Part shown: positions 41,959 through 52,461 of the stretch, piece by piece
How positions within the stretch are numbered: the stretch's first letter is position 1
How the letters are laid out: each line of letters opens with the position of its first letter
Source: an uncultured virus (IMG/VR IMGVR_UViG_3300006131_000009)
Taxonomy: Duplodnaviria > Heunggongvirae > Uroviricota > Caudoviricetes
Virus record (IMG/VR): IMGVR_UViG_3300006131_000009
Reading direction: 5' to 3' (one strand)
Length of the DNA: 64,000 nt
The notes under the pieces: model-generated
What the model was told of the DNA's origin: nothing
The model's input: the letters and a program-made list of their open reading frames with translations, nothing else
Databases searched by the model: none
Position numbers and translations under genes: made by a program

Positions 41959-42996
41959 TCAAGCCACATCCGCAAGGTATCTCTCAAACAGTACACTCGA
42001 TGTCTCGAACCCCAAAACCTCACGTGGATAATTATTAATCCACGCTTCAACTTGTGCGACATACGCAGTAGAAATTTTCCGAAAGTCTGTTCCCTTTGGA
42101 AGGAAGCGTCGGATCATTTTGTTTGTGTTCTCGTTCGTGCCGCGCTCGTATGCCCTGTACGGATGGCAATAGTAAATGATGGAACGCTTTCTCTCCCCCC
42201 TACCGAAGACCGATTTTTCCATTCCGGCACAATCGGCAAATTCTGATCCGTTGTCCACCGTAATGCTTTTGAATATCTGGGGAAAGCGCCGCCCATACCT
42301 CCTCTCCAGCTTGTCCAGCGCTTTTACAACACTCGCGGCAGTCTTGTCCGGCATTTTGATGATAATTTCCTGCCGCGTCAGCCGCTCTGAAAGAACGAGC
42401 AAGGTTTCCTTCGTTCTTTTCTTGCCCTCGACACAGTCCATTTCCCAATTTCCAAATGTTTCCCGTGCATTGATTTCCTCCGGGCGGTTCTCTATACTTT
42501 CGCCCCTTGGAGCGCGGGCCGGCTTGGAGCTCACTTTAACATATTTGCGCTTGTGCTTGCCCTTCTGGGGCAGGTGCGCCCGCTCCAGCCGAAGGAAAAC
42601 ACCCTTATCTATATAATTGTATATCGTTTTTTCGCTGATGACAGTCTGGAAGTTCAGCCCCAGACGTTTGATCTCACCCACAACAGCGGCGGGGGAATAT
42701 CTTTCATCGGCAATCTTTCTTTCAATAAATTCAGCCAATTCATGATCGTTGCCGATTTTTAAGCCGCGGCCCTTAGCCTTTAATTGTTCGTCGTACTTCT
42801 GCTGGGCGATTTCCGGCGAGTATCGCTTTTCCGTGGTCAAGTCATCGTTCAAGTGTATGTATTCGCCCCTTTTCAGTTCTCTGTAAATGGTCGAATTGTT
42901 TACGTGCAGCCGGTCTGCGATCTTCAGCGGCTTCATGCCCTCTTTCTGCGCCCGCTCGATTTTGAGACGGTCAGTCCACGTTAAATGCTTGTGCAT
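41959..42996 (-). CDS. IS30-family DDE transposase (probable phage integrase)
   Basis: STIYRELKRG, WEMDCV, ITVDNGSEF, ERGTNEN.N..IRRFLPKG. Confidence 0.95.
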   Translation of the reverse strand: MHKHLTWTDRLKIERAQKEGMKPLKIADRLHVNNSTIYRELKRGEYIHLNDDLTTEKRYSPEIAQQKYDEQLKAKGRGLKIGNDHELAEFIERKIADERYSPAAVVGEIKRLGLNFQTVISEKTIYNYIDKGVFLRLERAHLPQKGKHKRKYVKVSSKPARAPRGESIENRPEEINARETFGNWEMDCVEGKKRTKETLLVLSERLTRQEIIIKMPDKTAASVVKALDKLERRYGRRFPQIFKSITVDNGSEFADCAGMEKSVFGRGERKRSIIYYCHPYRAYERGTNENTNKMIRRFLPKGTDFRKISTAYVAQVEAWINNYPREVLGFETSSVLFERYLADVA

Positions 42997-43115
42997 CGTC
43001 GCTCCTCCTATACCAAGCATCCAATTTAGGCGGTCCGTGTAAGTACAAAAAACCCCTATAAGTCCCTATTTACAACACGTTTCGCCCCACGTCAACGCCG
43101 TCATACCGTACAAAA

Positions 43116-43533: not shown

Positions 43534-44214
43534 ATGAAAAAACAAAAAGAGTACACCAGCTGGGAAGAGACTCCATTACTATTCCACTACTATTTAGTTT
43601 CCATCTCCACTCCTTTATCCCTAGTAGTCCTGATCTGCCAGTATTCTCTTGTCCGCGAAGTCATCACTCCTTGGCTGCTGGTGTATTATATCGTCAATTT
43701 CGTCCTCTTGTTCAGCGCCTTTTATTGCCTGCTGAAAAAGCGGTGGACAGGCCCCGTCCTGATGACGGCGCAGCGCCTCTTTAATGCCGTGGCCGCCGTG
43801 CTGACGATCATCAGTGTCGCATCTGACTATCGATCTGATTTCGGCTCTCTTGTGCTGGACGCTCTGGTGTTCCCGGTCCGGGCGTGCATCATTTATACCT
43901 ACTACGAAAAGCGTCGCCTCCTGTTTTCCCCACTGCCCACATGGTATACGCCGCCCCAGAAAACCAGCGGCCCCTGGAAACCGCCGTCGGATTGGGCCGC
44001 CGCATCTACCTGGACGCCACCAGCCGATTGGGCCGTTGCAGACGTCTGGACCCCCCCGTCTCAACGCCCCGCCCCGTCTCCCACCAGCCAGCAGCCGCCA
44101 GCCGAGCCGGCCAGCCCTCCCGCCACCGACCACCAACGGCAAAAAGTGCGCGTCCATGTCACCGCCGCTTCCAAACGAGCATCTGCCCGCCGTGAAGACC
44201 ATTCATCAAAATAA
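43534..44214 (+). CDS. multi-TM membrane protein with Pro-rich tail
   Basis: GGAGG RBS; about four TM helices; WTPP repeats. Confidence 0.75.
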   Translation: MKKQKEYTSWEETPLLFHYYLVSISTPLSLVVLICQYSLVREVITPWLLVYYIVNFVLLFSAFYCLLKKRWTGPVLMTAQRLFNAVAAVLTIISVASDYRSDFGSLVLDALVFPVRACIIYTYYEKRRLLFSPLPTWYTPPQKTSGPWKPPSDWAAASTWTPPADWAVADVWTPPSQRPAPSPTSQQPPAEPASPPATDHQRQKVRVHVTAASKRASARREDHSSK

Positions 44215-44226
44215 AAGGAGCACATT

Positions 44227-45180
44227 ATGAAAATTGTAATTTGGCTCGGATGTATTCTCGTATTCAGTCTGGCACAGCTCATTTTAGCCACACAAGGCAT
44301 CATGCTGGGCGGCATCCCTACCGCCCTATTGGCCGCGGTTCTCGTCTTCATCCCCGCCCCGGCCCTCTGCAAAAAGTGGCAAGAGCGCCATGGGCAAACA
44401 GGGGAAACCAAAAGCGCCGAGACGCCGCCAGTTCCACCGGACGCGCCTCCTGCCGCCTCCAACCCAGGCCGCCGGCAGAAAGTACACGCCTATGTCCGTA
44501 CGGCCGCCCCGCCTTCTCCAACGGCAGACGCTCCGCGCGCTCCAGAGGACTCGACCCCTTCCCCCAGCGCCGAGACGCCACAGCACACGGAAAAACCCCG
44601 CCAAGGCGGCAAAATCCCCATTGCAGCAGCAAAGCTGCCTGTCCTGCTGGCGTGTGGCTGTTTGATTCTCGCCGCCGCAACCACCGTATTCGGTATTTTG
44701 TATTTTAGTGCGTCTGCGCAAATCGACTCACAAAAGTCGCTCCTGGAAGAGCAAGCCGCGCAGATTGCTGAACAGAAGTCGTCCCTGGAGGAACAAGCCG
44801 CGCAAATCACCTCGCAGGAATCGTCCCTGGAGGAGAAAGAAGATGAGATCAGTTGGCTCAATACAAAGTGTTCCATGAAAGAAAAAAAGCTGGATGAGCT
44901 GACAAAGAGCAACACCGACTTGCAAAGTGAAGTGTGCCGTCTTTCACCGTATGAATCTGTCGTGCAGAACCAGCTAGGAATCATTGTTGATAACAGCAAT
45001 ACTTACCACAACTATGACTGTTCAAAGGTACAAAAGGCTGAATCTTACGTAGTGATAATGGACGTTGTCGAATGTGCAAAGCGCGGTCTTAAATATTGTC
45101 CGAATTGCTGGACAGGTGGCGGCCCGTTTTATCTTTCGCGCTATAAATACATACAGAAGAAAACGCTGCCATCGCAGTAG
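44227..45180 (+). CDS. membrane protein with coiled coil and C-terminal Zn-binding module
   Basis: TM helices; SSLEEQAAQI repeats; YHNYDC...CPNC. Confidence 0.75.
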   Translation: MKIVIWLGCILVFSLAQLILATQGIMLGGIPTALLAAVLVFIPAPALCKKWQERHGQTGETKSAETPPVPPDAPPAASNPGRRQKVHAYVRTAAPPSPTADAPRAPEDSTPSPSAETPQHTEKPRQGGKIPIAAAKLPVLLACGCLILAAATTVFGILYFSASAQIDSQKSLLEEQAAQIAEQKSSLEEQAAQITSQESSLEEKEDEISWLNTKCSMKEKKLDELTKSNTDLQSEVCRLSPYESVVQNQLGIIVDNSNTYHNYDCSKVQKAESYVVIMDVVECAKRGLKYCPNCWTGGGPFYLSRYKYIQKKTLPSQ

Positions 45181-45204
45181 TAGAAAGATAAGGAGCGCAT
45201 CGTA

Positions 45205-46320
45205 ATGGATAACCGCCCGTCCGACACCACCTGCCGCAAAGCCTCGGCGGGAGGGGCCATACATTCTCCAAATAACAGCCCTGCACGTCCAGAAAGGAAG
45301 TATAGCCGAGAGCTGGAAAGTGTGGATCGGCTGCGGGAAAAGACCCGGCAGCTGGAGCGGCAGGCCCGCCAGGAGGGCTGGAGCGAAGAAAGACTCCGCC
45401 AGGAAAAAAGGAACGCCGTGGGCCAGGTATACGAGGGCCTTTTGGCGCGGCTTGACGCCATAGACGCAGGCCAGCGCCGCTGCCCGCCGCCACCTGCACC
45501 GGCCAGCCCTTCTGCCGCCTCCAAGACCGGCCAACGGCAGAAAGTGCGCGTCCATATCCGCCCGTCCTCCAAGGCCGCCCACAAGGCAGATGCCTGCCCC
45601 GCTGCAGCAGACTCGGCCCCTTCCCCCATCGCCGAGACGCCACAGCACACGGAGCGCCAAGACACAGTCCCCCAAAATCCCACTTTCAGAAAGAATCTGC
45701 CGATTCTGCTGGGGTGTGCCTGTCTGCTGCTGGCTGCCGCAGTGATCGTATTCGGCGCTTTGTACTTCCAGGCGTCGAACCGATCAGAAACTGCCGAGCC
45801 GGCCCTTTCTTCTTCAGAACCTCCTTCTTCCGAGCTTGATGACACCCCGATTGCACAGCCGCCATCTGAATCGTCTGATTCGCAGCCTGCAAAGGAAACA
45901 GAGGATACTCCCACTGTCTTGACTCCCCGATACATTTACAATGGAGAAATTATGCAGTTTCCAGTGGGAACACGTGTGGCGCCGTTAAAGGTCAATACAA
46001 CGGCCCAGGCAAATGGATATTACATTGTGATGGTCGCCGAAAACAAAGATACACTTTCTTTCTATGTAAAAGGCGGCAAAAGTGCAGAAATCGACGTGCC
46101 TACCGGAACGTTTGAAATCTGGTATGCCACCGGCACCACCTGGTACGGAAAAGAGGCAAAATTCGGCAGTGAGACGCAATATTATAAATGTGACGGCACT
46201 TTTCGCTTTTATCTCGATTCCGATTCCCGTACCTATATGGGCTGGGAATTGAGCCTTTATCCCACCTTCGGCGGCAATCTGTCCATAGAGACTGTAAGCC
46301 CTGAAGACTTCCCCGCATAG
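45205..46320 (+). CDS. membrane-anchored protein with extracellular beta domain
   Basis: Central TM helix; FYVKGG...VPTGTFEIWYATGTTWYG. Confidence 0.7.
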   Translation: MDNRPSDTTCRKASAGGAIHSPNNSPARPERKYSRELESVDRLREKTRQLERQARQEGWSEERLRQEKRNAVGQVYEGLLARLDAIDAGQRRCPPPPAPASPSAASKTGQRQKVRVHIRPSSKAAHKADACPAAADSAPSPIAETPQHTERQDTVPQNPTFRKNLPILLGCACLLLAAAVIVFGALYFQASNRSETAEPALSSSEPPSSELDDTPIAQPPSESSDSQPAKETEDTPTVLTPRYIYNGEIMQFPVGTRVAPLKVNTTAQANGYYIVMVAENKDTLSFYVKGGKSAEIDVPTGTFEIWYATGTTWYGKEAKFGSETQYYKCDGTFRFYLDSDSRTYMGWELSLYPTFGGNLSIETVSPEDFPA

Positions 46321-46352
46321 ATGGCCGCCCTGCAATTTTAATAGGCTGTAAT

Positions 46353-46382
46353 AAAAAGGACCGGGTATCCCCCGGTCCTTTT
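46353..46382. terminator. bidirectional terminator
   Basis: AAAAGGACCGGG/CCCGGTCCTTTT between convergent genes. Confidence 0.85.
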
Positions 46383-46472
46383 CCATGTTATCCTACCTGC
46401 TTCATCTTCTGCAGGGCCTTCTGTACAGCAGCCTTGTTGTAGACTATGCCGCCTCCCAACTGTACGAGGGGT

Positions 46473-46697
46473 CTACTGCTCCGGGTCCGGCCCGTTTTTC
46501 ATCCGAATCTCCGCTGCCTTCTCGAAGCACTCCTGCGCCGTCGGCTCCTTCTCCAGACTCCTGCACCATTGGAAAAACTCCTGTACGTTCTCCTCTGTCT
46601 CCAATGTGAGGCCCACGGCTATCACGTCCTCATCTTTTGCTTTGATACTCCCCATCAATCTCCCCAGAAAGTGAGCTGAATCGTTCGTCATTTCCAT
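46473..46697 (-). CDS. 74-aa helical protein overlapping the 3' end of the polyvalent gene
   Basis: AGAGGGG RBS; resembles nested ORF 46986-47237. Confidence 0.6.
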   Translation of the reverse strand: MEMTNDSAHFLGRLMGSIKAKDEDVIAVGLTLETEENVQEFFQWCRSLEKEPTAQECFEKAAEIRMKNGPDPEQ

Positions 46698-49600
46698 ACT
46701 GTGCCCCTCTTAAAATCTTATTGATGATATTCCGATTTGTCGCTGGATCAAGTCTTACCGTAACTTCAAATGCTCCCAGGTCATAGTTGCGAATTATGTA
46801 AAACTTATCATGCGCAAATACATAACCAGTCTCCGGAATGTTTTCTGCATCCATTCCGGCGTATTTTTGCATCTGTGCGTTCTGGACCTGTCGCCACTCC
46901 TGCTTTGACAGTTTAGGCCGTTTCAGCTCCCGGCTGTATTTGCTTCCCGCCATACCACCAGCATCCGCACCAGCTTCAGAGGTCTCTATTGCGTTTCCTC
47001 TTCCTCCATCATTTCGTCGTCCTCCGTTTTCTCTATTCTGGAAGATATTGCGGAGGACGCTTTCATAAGCTGCTCTTGGCTTGCGTCCGGATTTCTTTTG
47101 CAGAACTCCAGCATCTCCAGAACCGCTTCCTCGGACCATAGTTCCGTTACCATTATCAGTACCGCCAGCCTCTCGCACCCAACTGCTGCTAGATATCTGG
47201 TCAGCAATTTCTGATTTTCCGATAATATATTCCCCATAGTCCATTTCCTCCAATATATTTTTGAGATAGTCTCTCTCAAATTTAGCCTGCTCGCCCTTCA
47301 CCTCGTACAAAATGGTGGGATTGCTTTCGTTTTCTGTGCTGTAGATTGCAAATACAGGCACTCCATCAAAGGTGCGGAATGTCCAGTTTGCATTGTCGCA
47401 AATAGTATTTTTGCTGCTTTTTAGGTCATACTTCACCCACTGGACCAGCTTCTCCATTTGCGCTTTCGTCAGGTCAGAATGCCAGTATTCCCGGCTCATT
47501 TCGCCACTAGCGGCCAAAGGCGGTCCTCTGGTGCCGCCGCCCTTGCCTGCGGCATCTTGCGCCGCCACTTTCGCCTCTTTCAGCAGCTTCTGCGCCAATT
47601 CCTCGCTCACTGTCTCGGCAAATATATTCATGTCACCAAGGCTGTCGCAAATGATCTCCTCCCAGATTTCATCCGCCGTCATGCCTGTGCCGTCGTAGGC
47701 GTCCGTGTAGAGCTGCGCCGCCTCTTTCGGGTCATAGTGCTCGGCAATCCGTCCACGCACTGCGTCCAAATTCACCTGGCCCTTTGCGATCATGTCGTGG
47801 CCGGCCTCGTGGCGTATAATCTGGTCGGCCGTGTACTGGGGATGGTCCACCCGCACAAAAACACGGTCCCCGGAGATATAGCCCCGCGCACTGGCCCAGC
47901 TTCCGTCCTTTTGCCGTATCTGCAGGTTGTCTCCAGCAAAAAGTGTCAGCCGTAAGCCCCGCTTTTTTGCCAGTTTCTTTGCCGCCTTGGTGGCCTTTGT
48001 CTCGCCGCCTGTCACCAGGCGGATGCTGGCCTTTGTAGAGCCGCCTCCAATGCCCAGGCTGGAGGCGCTTACCTTCTCTCCATAAGTGAGGAAAGCTGCT
48101 CTAGCATCTGCTGGTCTTTCTTGGACTGCCCGGCCCGGATTTTCTCCTGCTCCTTTTTCCACTGGAGATACTTGCTTGCCGGAATCCGTACTTCCAGCCC
48201 GTTGGCTGCCGTCGCGTAAATGAACTTTTTCACTGCCATATTTATCTGTCCCCTCCTGATTCTTGGTTGTAGTATAGTTGTTTTTTCCCGCTTTTGCAAT
48301 GGCCGCGTCCTGCTGGCCGGCCGCATAAGCCGACAGGCGTAGGCCCTCTGTCAGCTTGGCTGCATACTCGCCTTTCACGTCTGAAAAGTTCTTTCCCGTC
48401 AGCCCCGCCTGGTATGCCTGTACAAAGCCGCCGAAAAACGTCGCGTCGTCATACTGCCGCCCGAACTCTGTGTCCCGGACAGCCTGGTACGTTTCCTGGC
48501 CGTTTTCTCCCAATGTTCTTATGGCGTCGCTGATGGAGTTTTGCGGCCCGTTTTGATTTTGCCGTATGTCTTCCTGCCCAGATGTGTAAACGTCCGTCTG
48601 CAGGCCTTCTAGGCCCCTCTGGGGGCTTTGTACATTTTGGTCCGCCTGCTGCATGGCAGTTTGACCTGCTGTTGGCGCCAAACTGGCCTCTGTGTTGACA
48701 CCGGTCTGCCCCTGTGGTATGCTGGATTCAGCAGGAGTTACGGCATTTGCGTTTTCGGACGTGTGCATCGAGGCGGTTTCCGCACCGGTGGGATGCTGGA
48801 CTCCTGTTTCTTTTGCCATATAAGCTGATACAATGTAGGCCGTTTTGGCTTTCGTATCCGGAACTGCCTCGACCACATAATACGTCCCGTTTACTTTTTT
48901 TTCATAGACAATTGATTTTGCAAGTCCAGGTTTTCCATTGCTCTTTACAGTCGTATAGGACTGAACTGTACCTCCTTCCCGAAGCGTGTCGTAATTGTCC
49001 AAAACATACTGGATGCGTCCAACATCATTTAGGTCTGCCATGGAATGGTCTGTCATACCATTCGGCCCGTGATCTTTGTAGATATGCTCGGCCATTCTCT
49101 GTTCCATGATGACCTTAAAACCAGATGTGTCGACTCCCGTTTTTTGCTTTATATCTGCTGCCGCTCGGTCAGACATGGTTTTGAAAAAGAATTTCCCACT
49201 GTTAGCCCCTTTATTGGAAATGGAGTCTTCCACAAACCTTACCAATTCAGGGTCCACCGCGGCCTGATATGCATCAACGACCGCTTGCTCTTTTGCCGTG
49301 TGCTCTGCCGGGTCCGTGTTAATAGCTGTACTATCCGCCGTCTCTGCCCTAGAGGCGGCGTTTTGCGGCCCGTTTTGATTTTGCCGTATGTTTTCTTGTC
49401 CAGGGGCATAAAATGGCGTCTGCGGGCCTTCTAGGCCTCTCTGGGGACTTTGTATGTTTTGGTCCGCCTGCTGCATGGCAGTTTGGCCCACTACTGGTAT
49501 TGGACCAGCTTTCTGGTTGACACCATCGTGTTCTCGTGTTACATTGATTTCAGAAGAATCTTGCGTCGGTGCGTCTTGGGCGTAAAGTGTAGGGCCGGAG

Positions 49601-52461
49601 TTTACTCCGGTATTATGCTCCGATTGCGGATTCTTCTGTTTTTGCACATCCGCTGTTGATGCCATATTGGCCTCTGTGTTGACACCGGTCTGCCTCTGTG
49701 GTATGCTGGTATTGCCAAGGGCAGAGGTGGACAGCGGTATTGGAGCGGCTTCGGCCGTGCGCGATGCGTAGTAGGCGGCCTCTGCCCTTGGTTTGTAATT
49801 TTGCTCATACCACTGTGTGGAAACTTGATAAGCTGTAACCGGGTGTAGACTCTTACGGCCTTTGGAAACGGTCTCGATGATAATCGTGTGACCGTTTATT
49901 TTTTTGCCTAGCATTACCCGAACAGTACCATTTTTTCTCCTATTTACTTCAATTATGTCATCATAGTTCTGAATATACTCTGGCAGTGATAGCGCCTGCT
50001 CTTCTGTCAGGGGGATGTTGCGGCTGTCTACATCTTCTCCCACGTGCTTTGCAAGGTGTCCGATTTCATTGGCGCTCAATTCCATGTAATACCCAGAAAT
50101 GTCTATTTGGCCGTCCGTCGCCGCCAGCACATCGCTTGCCAGCCGTTCCGTCGCCCGGCCATACGCCTTGACTGTTTCGCGCACTTGGCCGTGCAGTGCC
50201 TTTTTGATAAAATCCTTCACCTGCTGAACAGTTGTCAAAATGGGGGACTGCCCCTGCTGGAGCTGTGCGCTCTTGGTGTCACGAACGTGCTTTCTCGTTC
50301 CGGCCGCCAGATAGTCGTCCAGGTCTGCTTCTGTCAGCATATTCTGAATGCCGCCCGCCGCCATCGTCCCAGAGGCGGCGTTTTTGTCTGCTCCAGCTCC
50401 CAGCCTACCGGCTTCAAAGACGTCCGATAGTTTGGCATTTTCCTGCATGATCTCCAGGCTGGTCTCCCGCGCAACGTGGCTACCGTCTAAAATGCCTGCG
50501 GTCAGTGCGCCGAGGAGAAAAGAATATGCTGCATCTTCGCTTACCAGTTTGATTTCATTGTCCTCGTCCAATAGCAAATTCCGAAAGGCCGGTTCCAAAA
50601 TTTCCTGGATGTATTCCTCGCTGCCCTCTCCGAACATACTCAATCCCACATTGGCAGCGATGCGCAGCATAGCATTGTCGATATTGCGGATAGAGGCTTT
50701 GGCCGCGGCGTTCAAGCCGTTTTTTCCCAAGGAGCTGATGCCGCCAAGAACATACTCTAGTCCCGCTTCCGAGGCGCCTATCAAAAGGGAGTAAGACTTA
50801 GCCTTGTCCGGCGCATATCCCTGTGCCAGCGCCTGCTGATAGGCGTTGCCGCTGGCCGACAAGCCTAGACTGATAGAGCCGATCGCCTTGGCTGCGGCAA
50901 GCGGCGCGCCAAATGCCGAAGCAACGGTAGACAGCAAAATAGACGGCGCCATATTTGCCGAAGTCGTCACTAGATCATATGCAACTTGTCCCAGACTGGA
51001 GCCTAGTATTTTAGGTCCCGTTTCTGCTAAATCATCCCGCACATACTGGGAGCCGTATTGGATCGCAGTCGTAGGTCGGTAACCATCGGAGAAAAAGGAC
51101 TTGACGCCGCTGGTAAATTGGTCCAATCCGCTGACAACGCCATACCCGGCTGTAGAAAGCGTGCGTAAAACATCGTTGTCAATATCTCGCGCTTGTTTGC
51201 CAAACTGAAGTCCTCTTCTGGCATTTAAGGTCTCTGCCAGGGCATCCAGGTATCCTTGCGCGTCGTCCTTTCCTTTTTTTGCAAGTATGTAGTTGTAAAG
51301 ATTCAGCTCCTCCTTGGTCATAAACTCGTATGCTTCTTCACCGCCAAATTTTACGTTCTCCAGATAGAACTTGACGGGATTTGCCGTTTCCTCGGCAAAA
51401 GGCTGCCATCCAAAAATAGACATGCCACCGCCGCCCTCGCCCTGGTACCAGCCGGGGTTTTCCAAATCCCAGCCCATCTTTGCATATTTCTGAAATTCCG
51501 GGTCTTGGCGGTAGACTTCATAGGCTCGTGCTCCTTGAACACGCTTGGCCTGCCGCAGCGTCTCTTCCTCCTCGTCGGCCCGTTTCTTTACCGCCTGATA
51601 CGCAATATACTTCTGCCGTTGCTGCTCCACATCGTCATATGGTTTCGATAGATTCTGCAGCATCTGTGTCTGCTGCAGCCGCAGCTCCTGTACCTTCTTT
51701 TCTTGGGAAAGAACGTCTACTTGGTCGTACCGGTAGTCGGTTTGAATCTGTTTAGCAGTTTTCAGCTTTTGGTCTAAATTTTCCACTTGTTGTTCAATTT
51801 TTTGAACCTTTTGCCAATCTTCTTCCCACTGTTCAGCTGTATCGTGGGGCAAATCGAGCTGCTGTTCCAGCTTATCCAGTTCCCGCTGTAAGCTGTCTCT
51901 TGCCCACTGTCCCATTTCCAGGTCCATGTCCAAAAGGTCCTGCCGCTGCTTCTGCTCTCTTCTGATCTTCTCATTGACAGTATTTTGAAAAATCTCATTC
52001 ATCTGCGGCGACATAGCCTTCTGCGTGATGTTTAGCACCGTTTCAGGTATGCTGCTGATTTCCCGCGCCATTTTGGCCCTTCTGGGGTCTTTGCCAGAGG
52101 CATAATCCTGCAATGGCTGTGTGGCCGCCTGCACGCCGGCAGCGCCAAGCTGCAGCGCATCGTAGGCGGAAACGCCCTTTGCCGCCTTGGCCCTGGCAAT
52201 GGAATCCTCTGGGGAAATGGTGGGGACTTCCCTGCGGTATAATTCCAGTGCCTGGCTCCGCTGACTTCGGTTGCGAGATAGCGACGGACCGAAGCCATTT
52301 TTCAAAAAGTGCTCTCTAGCCGACGTCAGGCTGTTAGCAGAGCGAGTAGAATGCAGACTGCCCTGTCTGTTTGTCTGCGCCGTTTGCGCCTGCCCTGTCT
52401 TTGCGCCGCCTTGCCCTTGCTGCAAAAACCTGTTGCGGGCCTTTTCCAAACCTGTATCCAT
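46630..52461 (-). CDS. large polyvalent (probably ejected internal virion) protein with two PBECR-like nuclease domains and a HExxH metallopeptidase-like domain
   Basis: 1943 aa; GEGSEEYIQE helical region; KKINGHTIIIETV/KKVNGTYYVVEAV domains; IRHEAGH..EEIICD. Confidence 0.85.
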   Translation of the reverse strand: MDTGLEKARNRFLQQGQGGAKTGQAQTAQTNRQGSLHSTRSANSLTSAREHFLKNGFGPSLSRNRSQRSQALELYRREVPTISPEDSIARAKAAKGVSAYDALQLGAAGVQAATQPLQDYASGKDPRRAKMAREISSIPETVLNITQKAMSPQMNEIFQNTVNEKIRREQKQRQDLLDMDLEMGQWARDSLQRELDKLEQQLDLPHDTAEQWEEDWQKVQKIEQQVENLDQKLKTAKQIQTDYRYDQVDVLSQEKKVQELRLQQTQMLQNLSKPYDDVEQQRQKYIAYQAVKKRADEEEETLRQAKRVQGARAYEVYRQDPEFQKYAKMGWDLENPGWYQGEGGGGMSIFGWQPFAEETANPVKFYLENVKFGGEEAYEFMTKEELNLYNYILAKKGKDDAQGYLDALAETLNARRGLQFGKQARDIDNDVLRTLSTAGYGVVSGLDQFTSGVKSFFSDGYRPTTAIQYGSQYVRDDLAETGPKILGSSLGQVAYDLVTTSANMAPSILLSTVASAFGAPLAAAKAIGSISLGLSASGNAYQQALAQGYAPDKAKSYSLLIGASEAGLEYVLGGISSLGKNGLNAAAKASIRNIDNAMLRIAANVGLSMFGEGSEEYIQEILEPAFRNLLLDEDNEIKLVSEDAAYSFLLGALTAGILDGSHVARETSLEIMQENAKLSDVFEAGRLGAGADKNAASGTMAAGGIQNMLTEADLDDYLAAGTRKHVRDTKSAQLQQGQSPILTTVQQVKDFIKKALHGQVRETVKAYGRATERLASDVLAATDGQIDISGYYMELSANEIGHLAKHVGEDVDSRNIPLTEEQALSLPEYIQNYDDIIEVNRRKNGTVRVMLGKKINGHTIIIETVSKGRKSLHPVTAYQVSTQWYEQNYKPRAEAAYYASRTAEAAPIPLSTSALGNTSIPQRQTGVNTEANMASTADVQKQKNPQSEHNTGVNSGPTLYAQDAPTQDSSEINVTREHDGVNQKAGPIPVVGQTAMQQADQNIQSPQRGLEGPQTPFYAPGQENIRQNQNGPQNAASRAETADSTAINTDPAEHTAKEQAVVDAYQAAVDPELVRFVEDSISNKGANSGKFFFKTMSDRAAADIKQKTGVDTSGFKVIMEQRMAEHIYKDHGPNGMTDHSMADLNDVGRIQYVLDNYDTLREGGTVQSYTTVKSNGKPGLAKSIVYEKKVNGTYYVVEAVPDTKAKTAYIVSAYMAKETGVQHPTGAETASMHTSENANAVTPAESSIPQGQTGVNTEASLAPTAGQTAMQQADQNVQSPQRGLEGLQTDVYTSGQEDIRQNQNGPQNSISDAIRTLGENGQETYQAVRDTEFGRQYDDATFFGGFVQAYQAGLTGKNFSDVKGEYAAKLTEGLRLSAYAAGQQDAAIAKAGKNNYTTTKNQEGTDKYGSEKVHLRDGSQRAGSTDSGKQVSPVEKGAGENPGRAVQERPADARAAFLTYGEKVSASSLGIGGGSTKASIRLVTGGETKATKAAKKLAKKRGLRLTLFAGDNLQIRQKDGSWASARGYISGDRVFVRVDHPQYTADQIIRHEAGHDMIAKGQVNLDAVRGRIAEHYDPKEAAQLYTDAYDGTGMTADEIWEEIICDSLGDMNIFAETVSEELAQKLLKEAKVAAQDAAGKGGGTRGPPLAASGEMSREYWHSDLTKAQMEKLVQWVKYDLKSSKNTICDNANWTFRTFDGVPVFAIYSTENESNPTILYEVKGEQAKFERDYLKNILEEMDYGEYIIGKSEIADQISSSSWVREAGGTDNGNGTMVRGSGSGDAGVLQKKSGRKPRAAYESVLRNIFQNRENGGRRNDGGRGNAIETSEAGADAGGMAGSKYSRELKRPKLSKQEWRQVQNAQMQKYAGMDAENIPETGYVFAHDKFYIIRNYDLGAFEVTVRLDPATNRNIINKILRGAQYGNDERFSSLSGEIDGEYQSKR
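46986..47237 (-). CDS. 83-aa ORF nested out of frame in the polyvalent gene
   Basis: GGAGG RBS + ATG; MGNILSENQKLLTRYLAAVG...; similar to 46473-46697. Confidence 0.55.
   Translation of the reverse strand: MGNILSENQKLLTRYLAAVGCERLAVLIMVTELWSEEAVLEMLEFCKRNPDASQEQLMKASSAISSRIEKTEDDEMMEEEETQ
48069..48239 (-). CDS. 56-aa ORF nested out of frame in the polyvalent gene
   Basis: Own promoter TTGCAA-17-TATACT (48271-48299) and AGGAGGGG RBS. Confidence 0.55.
   Translation of the reverse strand: MAVKKFIYATAANGLEVRIPASKYLQWKKEQEKIRAGQSKKDQQMLEQLSSLMERR
48695..48814 (+). ncRNA. antisense promoter plus closed-stem RNA unit C
   Basis: TTGACA-17-TATGCT; stem CAGGAGT(48732-38)/ACTCCTG(48800-06); T-rich tail. 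Confidence 0.55.
49517..49643 (+). ncRNA. antisense promoter plus closed-stem RNA unit B
   Basis: TTGACA-17-TACATT; stem CAGAAGAATC(49551-60)/GATTCTTCTG(49629-38); TTTTT. Confidence 0.55.
49679..49802 (+). ncRNA. antisense promoter plus closed-stem RNA unit A
   Basis: TTGACA-17-TATGCT; perfect 13-bp stem CCAAGGGCAGAGG(49715-27)/CCTCTGCCCTTGG(49779-91). Confidence 0.55.

Follow-up and report, generated by a model that had tools for sequence, protein, structure and literature searches.

Can the low-complexity linker of a giant phage protein be, in another reading frame, a gene in its own right? This question is raised by a stretch of 64,000 nucleotides from an uncultured virus of the Caudoviricetes (IMG/VR record IMGVR_UViG_3300006131_000009), which is referred to as the window below. 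Its longest open reading frame (ORF), with 1943 codons on the minus strand (46630-52461), lies among prophage genes and appears to encode a polyvalent virion protein; its frame is called the main or host frame here. Three small ORFs on the same strand, ORF-C, ORF-B and ORF-A, lie within this gene or at its end. A first-pass annotation, made from the letters of the sequence alone, had taken them for overprinted genes that are expressed from an internal promoter and whose products neutralise adjacent effector domains of the large protein.

According to our comparison with related loci, ORF-B and ORF-C are very probably genuine protein-coding genes; in the regions of both, one stretch of DNA very likely codes for two proteins in parallel. 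The best explanation for the locus is that B and C genes are nested in the giant gene and linked as cassettes to particular neighbouring domains. We give this explanation a probability of roughly 0.6, a figure that covers the whole statement minus the inhibitory step, i. e. minus the proposal that the small proteins inhibit the adjacent domains.

Three small frames and their start signals

All three ORFs were found where the first-pass annotation had placed them, on the minus strand and in the +1 frame of the giant gene, and each is preceded by a strong Shine-Dalgarno (SD) sequence, as had been claimed. ORF-C (48069-48239) would encode a basic protein of 56 amino acids (aa); its SD AGGAGGGG lies at 48250-48257 with a spacer of 10 nt to the ATG. 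ORF-B (46986-47237), coding for an acidic protein of 83 aa with four predicted helices, has the SD GGAGGA at 47246-47251 and a spacer of 8 nt, and this SD doubles as Leu-Glu-Glu codons at the end of the preceding domain, X1. ORF-A (46473-46697) would encode an acidic paralogue of ORF-B with 74 aa and has AGAGGGG at 46704-46710, 6 nt before its ATG. The description of the small ORFs as lying inside the polyvalent gene is correct for ORF-B and ORF-C, which are wholly nested and thus small ORFs in another frame of a larger same-strand ORF. In both, the T of the start ATG is the third base of a TAT (Tyr) codon of the main frame, so that a change to ACG would be silent for the giant protein. It does not apply to ORF-A, which shares only the last 68 nt of the giant gene. 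ORF-A is the last gene of the operon and lies upstream of the strong intrinsic terminator that closes it (46345-46383, minus strand), which consists of a 13-bp stem followed by UUUUUAUU (-28.9 kcal/mol, z -5.4).

The promoter that had been assigned to ORF-C, TTGCAA-17-TATACT, is indeed present (48271-48299, minus strand; 9/12 matches). Its conservation does not extend beyond the closest relative, L013, where it is kept only approximately; in L012 and L014-L016 it is not kept. Expression from an internal promoter is thus not supported, as the -35/-10 match is not conserved whereas SD and ATG are. This contrast points to internal initiation of translation on the operon mRNA, and a function of the promoter-like sequence is doubtful.

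Conservation and selection on the nested frames

Judged by their length and ribosome-binding site alone, the three ORFs are not beyond chance, and what decides the matter is how their sequences compare with those of relatives. The +1 frame of 12 related giant ORFs has a stop density of 0.043 per codon, and 45 of its 847 open runs have at least 72 codons. The giant gene of the window has +1 runs of 103, 97, 93 and 89 codons of its own. Alternative-frame ORFs of up to 264 codons in GC-rich relatives were considered as well and look like compositional junk. Frames of such lengths are what one would see if the small ORFs were chance openings that only seem conserved because the main frame is under selection. 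As a control set, 25 same-strand alternative-frame open pieces of at least 45 aa in the 46630-52461 gene were compared with the relatives. Outside the near-identical L013, only the pieces of ORF-A, ORF-B and ORF-C had stop-free matches; the other 22 failed. It is this comparison that lifts the three ORFs above chance.

With ORF-B, a database search yielded 12 homologues of 65-101 aa and 53-78% identity. Their alignment is protein-like, with invariant LLT-YLAAVGC and EMLEFC blocks. Loci were collected through ORF-B itself from genome bins, viral contigs and metagenomes. The 13 full-length copies, at 43-65% identity, all have an ATG with a GGAGG/GAGG-type core upstream, and 11 of them lie wholly within a longer main-frame ORF, always in the +1 frame. 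Eight of the nested copies are found in giant ORFs and three in genes of 236-259 codons, the 3' third of which covers ORF-B. The two copies that are not nested, a duplicate in L002 and a contig-edge copy in L005, each have one host-frame stop.

Among 1.84 billion proteins the ORF-B profile found 80 representative clusters. Most representatives (68/80) have at most 115 aa (median 77 aa), and nearly all of these match from the first few residues; the short ones are acidic, with a negative net charge in 61/68 and a mean of -6.4. For ORF-B itself, a structure model predicts a four-helix bundle (pLDDT 88.9, pTM 0.74). A Foldseek search of the PDB with this model gave nothing at E<=0.001, and the ESM Atlas had no usable match for ORF-B (best score 0.80) or ORF-C. 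DdrC was considered as a structural neighbour of ORF-B and dismissed: its VIA-align score, the best obtained (Z 8.6), is below the noise level that the tool states for helical bundles. In phage and plasmid records, neither the region nor ORF-B nor the block from ORF-C to X1 had a match at the DNA or protein level.

ORF-C has four database homologues, all with 56 aa, and in 5/5 further viral loci that were fetched via ORF-C it is nested and has ATG and SD. A further 80 viral loci were fetched through the adjacent peptidase-like domain alone and not through ORF-C, which removes ascertainment by ORF-C. In 80/80 of these loci an ORF of the C family lies directly upstream of the peptidase-like domain in the +1 frame, and in 80/80 the host frame is open. 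A motif check found ATG and an SD-like core before ORF-C in 79/80. The relatives of ORF-C are basic, with net charges of +3 to +5. A likeness of the N-terminus of ORF-C to the MazE/AbrB-type motif was considered and dropped: neither Pfam at E<=0.5 (nine C-family sequences) nor a profile search of the PDB gave such a family. Stop codons in the nested frames of close homologues would have spoken against the first-pass annotation by its own account. The full-length copies of ORF-B (13/13) and ORF-C (80/80) are intact.

The conserved starts also bear on the possibility that the nested frames are reached by programmed +1 frameshifting, whose products would be shortened versions of the polyvalent protein with a B or C domain at their end and not free small proteins. 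An internal SD can act as a frameshift stimulator. Those found here might serve as such, and all nested copies have the same +1 phase. Yet the ATG is conserved at the first residue of the family in 13/13 B and 79/80 C copies, in nearly all of the 68 short B representatives the match to the profile begins within the first few residues, and the upstream alignments contain no conserved slippery or stop-codon shift site. The shared phase can be explained more simply: synonymous third-position changes alone should suffice to remove stops in the -1 frame, and in combination with overprinting this would account for it. Frameshifting is therefore very unlikely, and nested genes with starts of their own remain the preferred reading.

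Two measures were used to see which frame is under selection. X1, read in the main frame, has a diversity of 0.416/0.291/0.600 at codon positions 1, 2 and 3. Read in the nested register, ORF-B gives 0.362/0.283/0.473 (9 loci) and ORF-C 0.340/0.299/0.477 (17 sequences), and in 0/5000 codon bootstraps was position 3 at or below position 2. Differences that are silent in the nested frame only outnumber those silent in the host frame only, with 1424 versus 794 for ORF-B (possible single changes 137:165) and 2483 versus 1417 for ORF-C (93:113); as the sequence pairs are phylogenetically non-independent, these contrasts are descriptive and not P-values. In the ORF-B region, changes silent in the host frame do not occur more often than those affecting both proteins. 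This indicates that the host frame has no amino-acid constraint here and needs only to stay free of stops. Over the 17 ORF-C sequences the nested and main frames contain 0 stops each, the third frame 33.

Codon phase and substitution classes thus favour the nested frame over both ORF-B and ORF-C, which show purifying selection while the host frame stays open. The earlier view of the main frame as a low-complexity linker in these regions was borne out, with no detectable amino-acid constraint. Against this background, chance openings carried along by main-frame selection deserve hardly any credence, since there is no such constraint to carry them, start and SD are conserved, the fold of ORF-B is modelled with confidence and intact copies exist where the main frame is broken.

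The resemblance of ORF-A to ORF-B, which had been noticed in the first reading, is real but weak: BLASTP gives E 0.001 at 25% identity and hhalign E 6.8e-5 with a probability of 63%. Searches with ORF-A gave five database proteins, including the window's own called product of 72 aa. The ORF-A profile matches members of the B superfamily, and the superfamily profile detects ORF-A at 1.9e-19. By these comparisons ORF-A is a conventional downstream gene of the superfamily of ORF-B and its distant paralogue. The superfamily profile also revealed nested +1 members in L003, L008, L009 and L015; L009 has a C-like ORF as well. The broad B-superfamily alignment and a 7-sequence peptidase alignment were too divergent to serve as queries for locus scans; of two scans that used one distant member each, the first yielded a single marginal locus and the second nothing.

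Small genes of this kind also occur where the giant gene is not intact. In L020 (1959-3787) five intact A-like genes of 81-89 aa stand in tandem, about 330 nt apart, and stops divide the -1 frame into pieces of 107-117 codons. This indicates that the small genes are maintained without an intact giant gene. The array is chromosomal; it adjoins a gene in which B and C are fused as well as a free-standing C-like gene, and forms an islet beside host genes; in L021, which is comparable to this islet, a prolyl-tRNA synthetase gene lies upstream. B and C occur side by side as free genes in L005 and L021, and the proteins P0034 and P0064 are natural fusions of B and C. Other architectures of the B-superfamily domain were seen in P0042, P0050, P0099 and P0076, namely fusion to a DMP19-like domain, a tandem duplicate and a position at the C-terminus of a 344-aa protein.

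Linkage to neighbouring domains and possible roles

Why are the small genes found at these particular sites? Directly downstream of ORF-C, the giant gene encodes a zinc-peptidase-like domain (47551-48060, minus strand) with the motif HEAGHD in its translation. We tentatively call it 'MPTase-like' after this HExxH motif and the zincin-like MPTase domain of the polyvalent-protein clade (Iyer et al. 2017). The domain has about 170 aa and is conserved; no Pfam model matched it, and a profile built from six loci detected nine copies in the earlier loci and those in the 80 viral contigs. X1 (47227-47499, minus strand), directly upstream of ORF-B, was delimited by alignments and is modelled by AlphaFold2 as an alpha-beta4-alpha domain (pLDDT 86.4, pTM 0.77). 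X2 (46633-46974, minus strand) is the C-terminal globular segment, recognised in the translation, that precedes ORF-A. Segments related to X2 precede A-like nested genes in L008 and L020, with 36 bits between those two and 23 bits between X2 and the L020 segment. A similarity between X1 and X2 that had been suspected by eye was not supported, as BLASTP gave no alignment. The claim that ORF-B and ORF-A each start right after a compact globular segment holds, and the confident model of X1 agrees with it.

In 12/12 cases an ORF of the B superfamily, in the +1 frame, begins between -7 and +8 nt from the end of X1. An ORF of the C family precedes the peptidase-like domain in 8/9 copies of the first loci, and the ninth lies at a contig edge. 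Hence all assessable domains carry their small gene, X1 in 12/12 and the peptidase-like domain in 88/88 cases (88/89 when the contig edge is counted). The window and L012 share the order [C]-peptidase-X1-[B], with 48% identity over residues 1409-1846. L004 has peptidase-X1-[B], and its upstream part lies beyond the contig. To judge from the sequences, domain subtype and small-gene subtype seem to travel together, X1 with B-type and X2-like segments with A-type genes. The small genes are thus probably cassette partners of the adjacent domain.

The same counts speak to the idea that the nested genes are cargo of selfish insertions, tolerated since they are read as linker in the host frame. A precedent is ShiLan, an insertion in mycobacteriophage methylase genes with a hidden out-of-frame HNH endonuclease, across which the host ORF stays open (PMC11855218). 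The giant gene is likewise stop-free across its out-of-frame genes. In contrast to an element of the ShiLan type, there is no sporadic presence and absence here, the small genes being fixed partners of particular domains (X1 12/12; peptidase-like 88/89, with the contig edge as the exception). Nor do A, B or C contain an endonuclease or any nuclease or mobility domain; the nested genes have only 56-83 codons, and ORF-B is modelled as a four-helix bundle. We consider selfish insertion highly improbable and retain cassette partnership.

In the preferred explanation, each small gene would be translated from its own SD and ATG on a long operon mRNA. The giant gene reads through the small genes and thereby gains a low-complexity linker with no detectable constraint except against stops. 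The cassettes consist of two pieces, with B and A genes beginning a few bases from the end of an X domain and C genes ending before a peptidase-like domain. The small genes are most likely the older coding layer; instead of having arisen de novo within the giant gene, they would have been overprinted by its linkers at the fusion of cassettes. This order is suggested by the selection borne by the nested frame and the occurrence of the families outside giant genes, together with the ease of removing -1-frame stops noted above. Finally, the small proteins might act in trans on the neighbouring domain, binding it and holding it inactive in the cell that produces the phage or carries it as a lysogen, as immunity proteins or antitoxins do. 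B and C may act together, as the natural B-C fusions suggest.

The last of these steps draws on the position of the B and A genes right after a compact domain, the fold of X1, the arrangement in L006 and the chromosomal array of A-like genes in L020. The fusions of B to C and to a DMP19-like domain also count in favour of a partner role. Directly downstream of X1, ORF-B has the position of an immunity gene in a toxin-immunity cassette, which ORF-C has not. X1 has no match in Pfam or among PDB sequences, and Foldseek gave nothing at E<=0.001, BFVD included. Its best VIA-align match is the toxin-antitoxin complex 7ycs with Z 5.2 and an rmsd of 2.8 Å over 66 residues, a range (Z<8) that according to the tool is common among unrelated folds. 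Among the best 50 fold matches, 22 are of the RelE/ParE/HigB/YoeB/YafQ type, CDI toxins (CDI toxin-immunity, CdiA-CT) or the RelE-like Cami1, with Z 3.2-5.2. The modelled likeness of X1 to RelE, ParE and CDI toxins is a coherent but weak lead. L006 (4292-7248) encodes an 819-aa relative of the N-terminal part of the giant protein that ends in a Gln_amidase domain (papain-fold toxin 1, E 1.7e-14). It is followed by an 88-aa ORF and then by a truncated remnant of ORF-B with an overlapping host-frame tail. By analogy, this looks like a displaced polymorphic-toxin cassette as set out by Zhang et al. 2012 (PMC3482391).

From these observations, an inhibitory, immunity-like or antitoxin-like role is the best single guess for the putative function of the small proteins. 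It is a tentative one. Several findings weigh against it and against the explanation as a whole. Immunity genes follow their partner domain, whereas ORF-C precedes its own, and this partner is a peptidase-like domain and not a classical toxin; because of this misfit the odds of an immunity role stay clearly below even. The fold matches of X1 are weak (Z<=5.2; none in Foldseek at E<=0.001), and profile comparison with hhalign found X1 unrelated to PBECR3, a Pfam domain of the same giant protein. ORF-B, ORF-C and X1 have no match in Pfam, PHROG, NCBIfam, PADLOC or PDB sequences, so that no function can be transferred to them by homology. The 80 loci fetched through the peptidase-like domain amount to 22 distinct C proteins, and many of them come from one sample. 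The linkage of X1 and B is partly a matter of ascertainment, as most X1 loci were fetched through ORF-B, and an X1-led scan of viral contigs returned only the already known L012 contig. That domain and small gene diverge together (Spearman 0.83) would hold for any neighbouring stretches of DNA. The database 'proteins' for these ORFs are predictions of gene callers and not observed products, and to this comes the non-independence of the sequence pairs mentioned above. ORF-A likewise lacks a match in Pfam, PHROGs, NCBIfam, PADLOC and PDB sequences, and no known immunity family was found for A, B or C in Pfam, NCBIfam or PADLOC at the thresholds used.

The linkage of ORF-C to the peptidase-like domain is also compatible with a different role. 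The small proteins could be factors of assembly, packaging or processing, for example chaperones that maintain a domain of an ejection protein in a state fit for packaging, or B and C could time a self-cleavage of the polyvalent protein by the peptidase-like domain. The linkage is obligate (80/80), the block [C]-peptidase-X1-[B] recurs in the window and L012 and the shorter peptidase-X1-[B] in L004, and the acidic B and the basic C are fused in P0034 and P0064. A candidate cleavage site would be available in the motif acidic-(V/I)(R/K)-Y-S / K-Y-S-R-E. This motif, seen by eye, recurs in the host frame at junctions of linker and domain, namely at about 46930-46950 and 47490-47510 of the window and in L001, L009, L012 and L020, in the last of these also at the ends of the repeat units. 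The peptidase-like domain might process the protein at these points. The small proteins have no similarity to a known chaperone or peptidase inhibitor, and the tandem arrays of A-like genes that stand by host genes without a giant gene are hard to explain in this way. On balance an assembly role is possible but rather unlikely.

The acidity of the B superfamily (mean -6.4; 61/68 negative) has a further possible meaning. The small proteins could be host-directed anti-defence or regulatory factors, e. g. acidic mimics of proteins or DNA, which overlap the giant gene merely to save space and to be expressed along with it, and which leave the phage's own domains alone. Two of the 80 B representatives, P0042 and P0050, are fused to a DMP19-like domain (PF14300, E 2.4e-14 and 2.8e-6), and DMP19 is described as a DNA-mimic protein in PMC3384305. 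For factors of this kind the strict coupling to one domain type and the co-variation of subtypes would be unnecessary, and there was no match to a PADLOC or anti-defence family. We regard such a role as improbable, and return to proteins that act on the neighbouring domain.

If that action is inhibitory, a more far-reaching version of the cassette explanation can be drawn. Fusion of cassettes would build the giant proteins, their small products would act as immunity proteins in trans and silence each injected effector domain in the producer or lysogen, and arrays of the L020 type would be orphan immunity genes, collected by bacteria or resident prophages, that protect against the injected effectors of superinfecting phages. 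Taken as a whole, this version is unlikely.

Known systems and the prophage setting

Embedded phage genes such as Rz1 in Rz and the read-through of hidden out-of-frame genes as in ShiLan are already known. Rz1 lies in the +1 frame relative to Rz. Lambda Rz1 is described as an embedded same-strand gene within Rz in PMC5295617. As in Rz/Rz1, a larger phage gene contains, in another frame, an entire small gene that has a start of its own, and both frames are open. The host gene here is a multi-domain polyvalent gene, there are two unrelated families and several sites per gene, and the host frame is an unconstrained linker and not a functional domain.

The arrangement also resembles that of the MuF-type polymorphic toxins of phage capsids, as presented in PMC3482391 and PMC12226406. 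In both, a variable domain of a virion protein is followed by a small cognate gene; the Gln_amidase (Tox-PL1) end of L006 with its small ORF and displaced remnant of ORF-B, and the likeness of the A-like tandem array to orphan immunity arrays, fit this picture. In contrast to these systems, no MuF domain was found here, neither X1 nor X2 belongs to a known family of toxins, the small genes lie internally in another frame of the toxin-bearing ORF itself, and ORF-C precedes its partner. Type II toxin-antitoxin pairs of the RelE/ParE kind are similar insofar as the alpha/beta domain X1, with its weak RelE/ParE/HigB fold matches, is followed by the gene of a small, helical, acidic protein. They differ in that Z is only 3.2-5.2 with no sequence similarity, that the 'toxin' would be a domain of a giant protein and that no DNA-binding antitoxin domain was recognised.

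The giant protein itself fits the class of polyvalent proteins, since it has two PBECR3 domains, a HExxH peptidase-like domain and long low-complexity spacers. PBECR3 was found at residues 1100-1218 (48808-49164, minus strand; Pfam PF18812, E 8e-20, in two stretches), and a second, weaker copy, which aligns to the first at 24% identity, at about 49762-50139 on the same strand. Thus several effector-type domains (two PBECR3, HExxH, X1 and X2) are joined in one polypeptide, and the gene sits among virion and packaging genes. Giant size, the two PBECR3 domains, the HExxH domain and the neighbourhood of virion genes are features shared with the polyvalent proteins of Iyer et al. 2017 (PMC5512222). 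Nested genes in the regions between domains are not described in the main text of that paper, in which the words 'overlap', 'frameshift' and 'linker' do not occur. Presumably, the giant protein is packaged and injected like other polyvalent proteins. In the literature searched and in the main text of Iyer et al. we found no description of conserved small-gene families nested in the linkers of polyvalent proteins.

As gene callers forbid long overlaps on the same strand, genes of this kind would be missing systematically from phage annotations. In phages of gut Clostridia, the 'linkers' of giant virion genes appear to conceal at least two protein families, one of them with about 80 representative clusters. 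A spacer that looks disordered in one frame can thus be a well-folded, selected protein in another. The findings also suggest that polyvalent proteins grow through read-through fusion of neighbouring cassettes. Should the small proteins be cognate inhibitors, they would offer a handle on which polyvalent domains are toxic effectors and on how phages avoid intoxicating themselves.

The giant gene belongs to a block of about 35 kb (24000-58000 of the window) with a G+C content of 51-60%, flanked by DNA with 40-46%; in its composition the block is foreign to its surroundings. It codes for a terminase, a P22-like portal, a capsid protein, a cell-wall hydrolase and an amidase, and is a prophage by the presence of these genes; its host is a Clostridia bacterium of the mouse gut. 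Contigs from four DNA sequencing runs have 0 indels across 46400-48567, and the assembly is likewise free of them in contigs of two runs that may be the source sample. Further upstream in the giant gene, the linker following each PBECR3 domain is duplicated, with near-identical runs of about 45 residues (48540-48725; ~49360-49390), and public contigs break or are cross-joined at these duplicates.

Between the polyvalent operon and an IS30-like transposase gene (HTH_38 and rve) lie three opposite-strand ORFs of 226, 317 and 371 aa (43534-46320 on the plus strand; 41959-43020 on the minus strand). None of them matched a Pfam family, and PADLOC gave weak matches to a coiled-coil LmuB-like protein (E 1.4e-4) and to PD-T4-6 (E 1.4e-4). 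The group may be a moron or a defence islet within the prophage.

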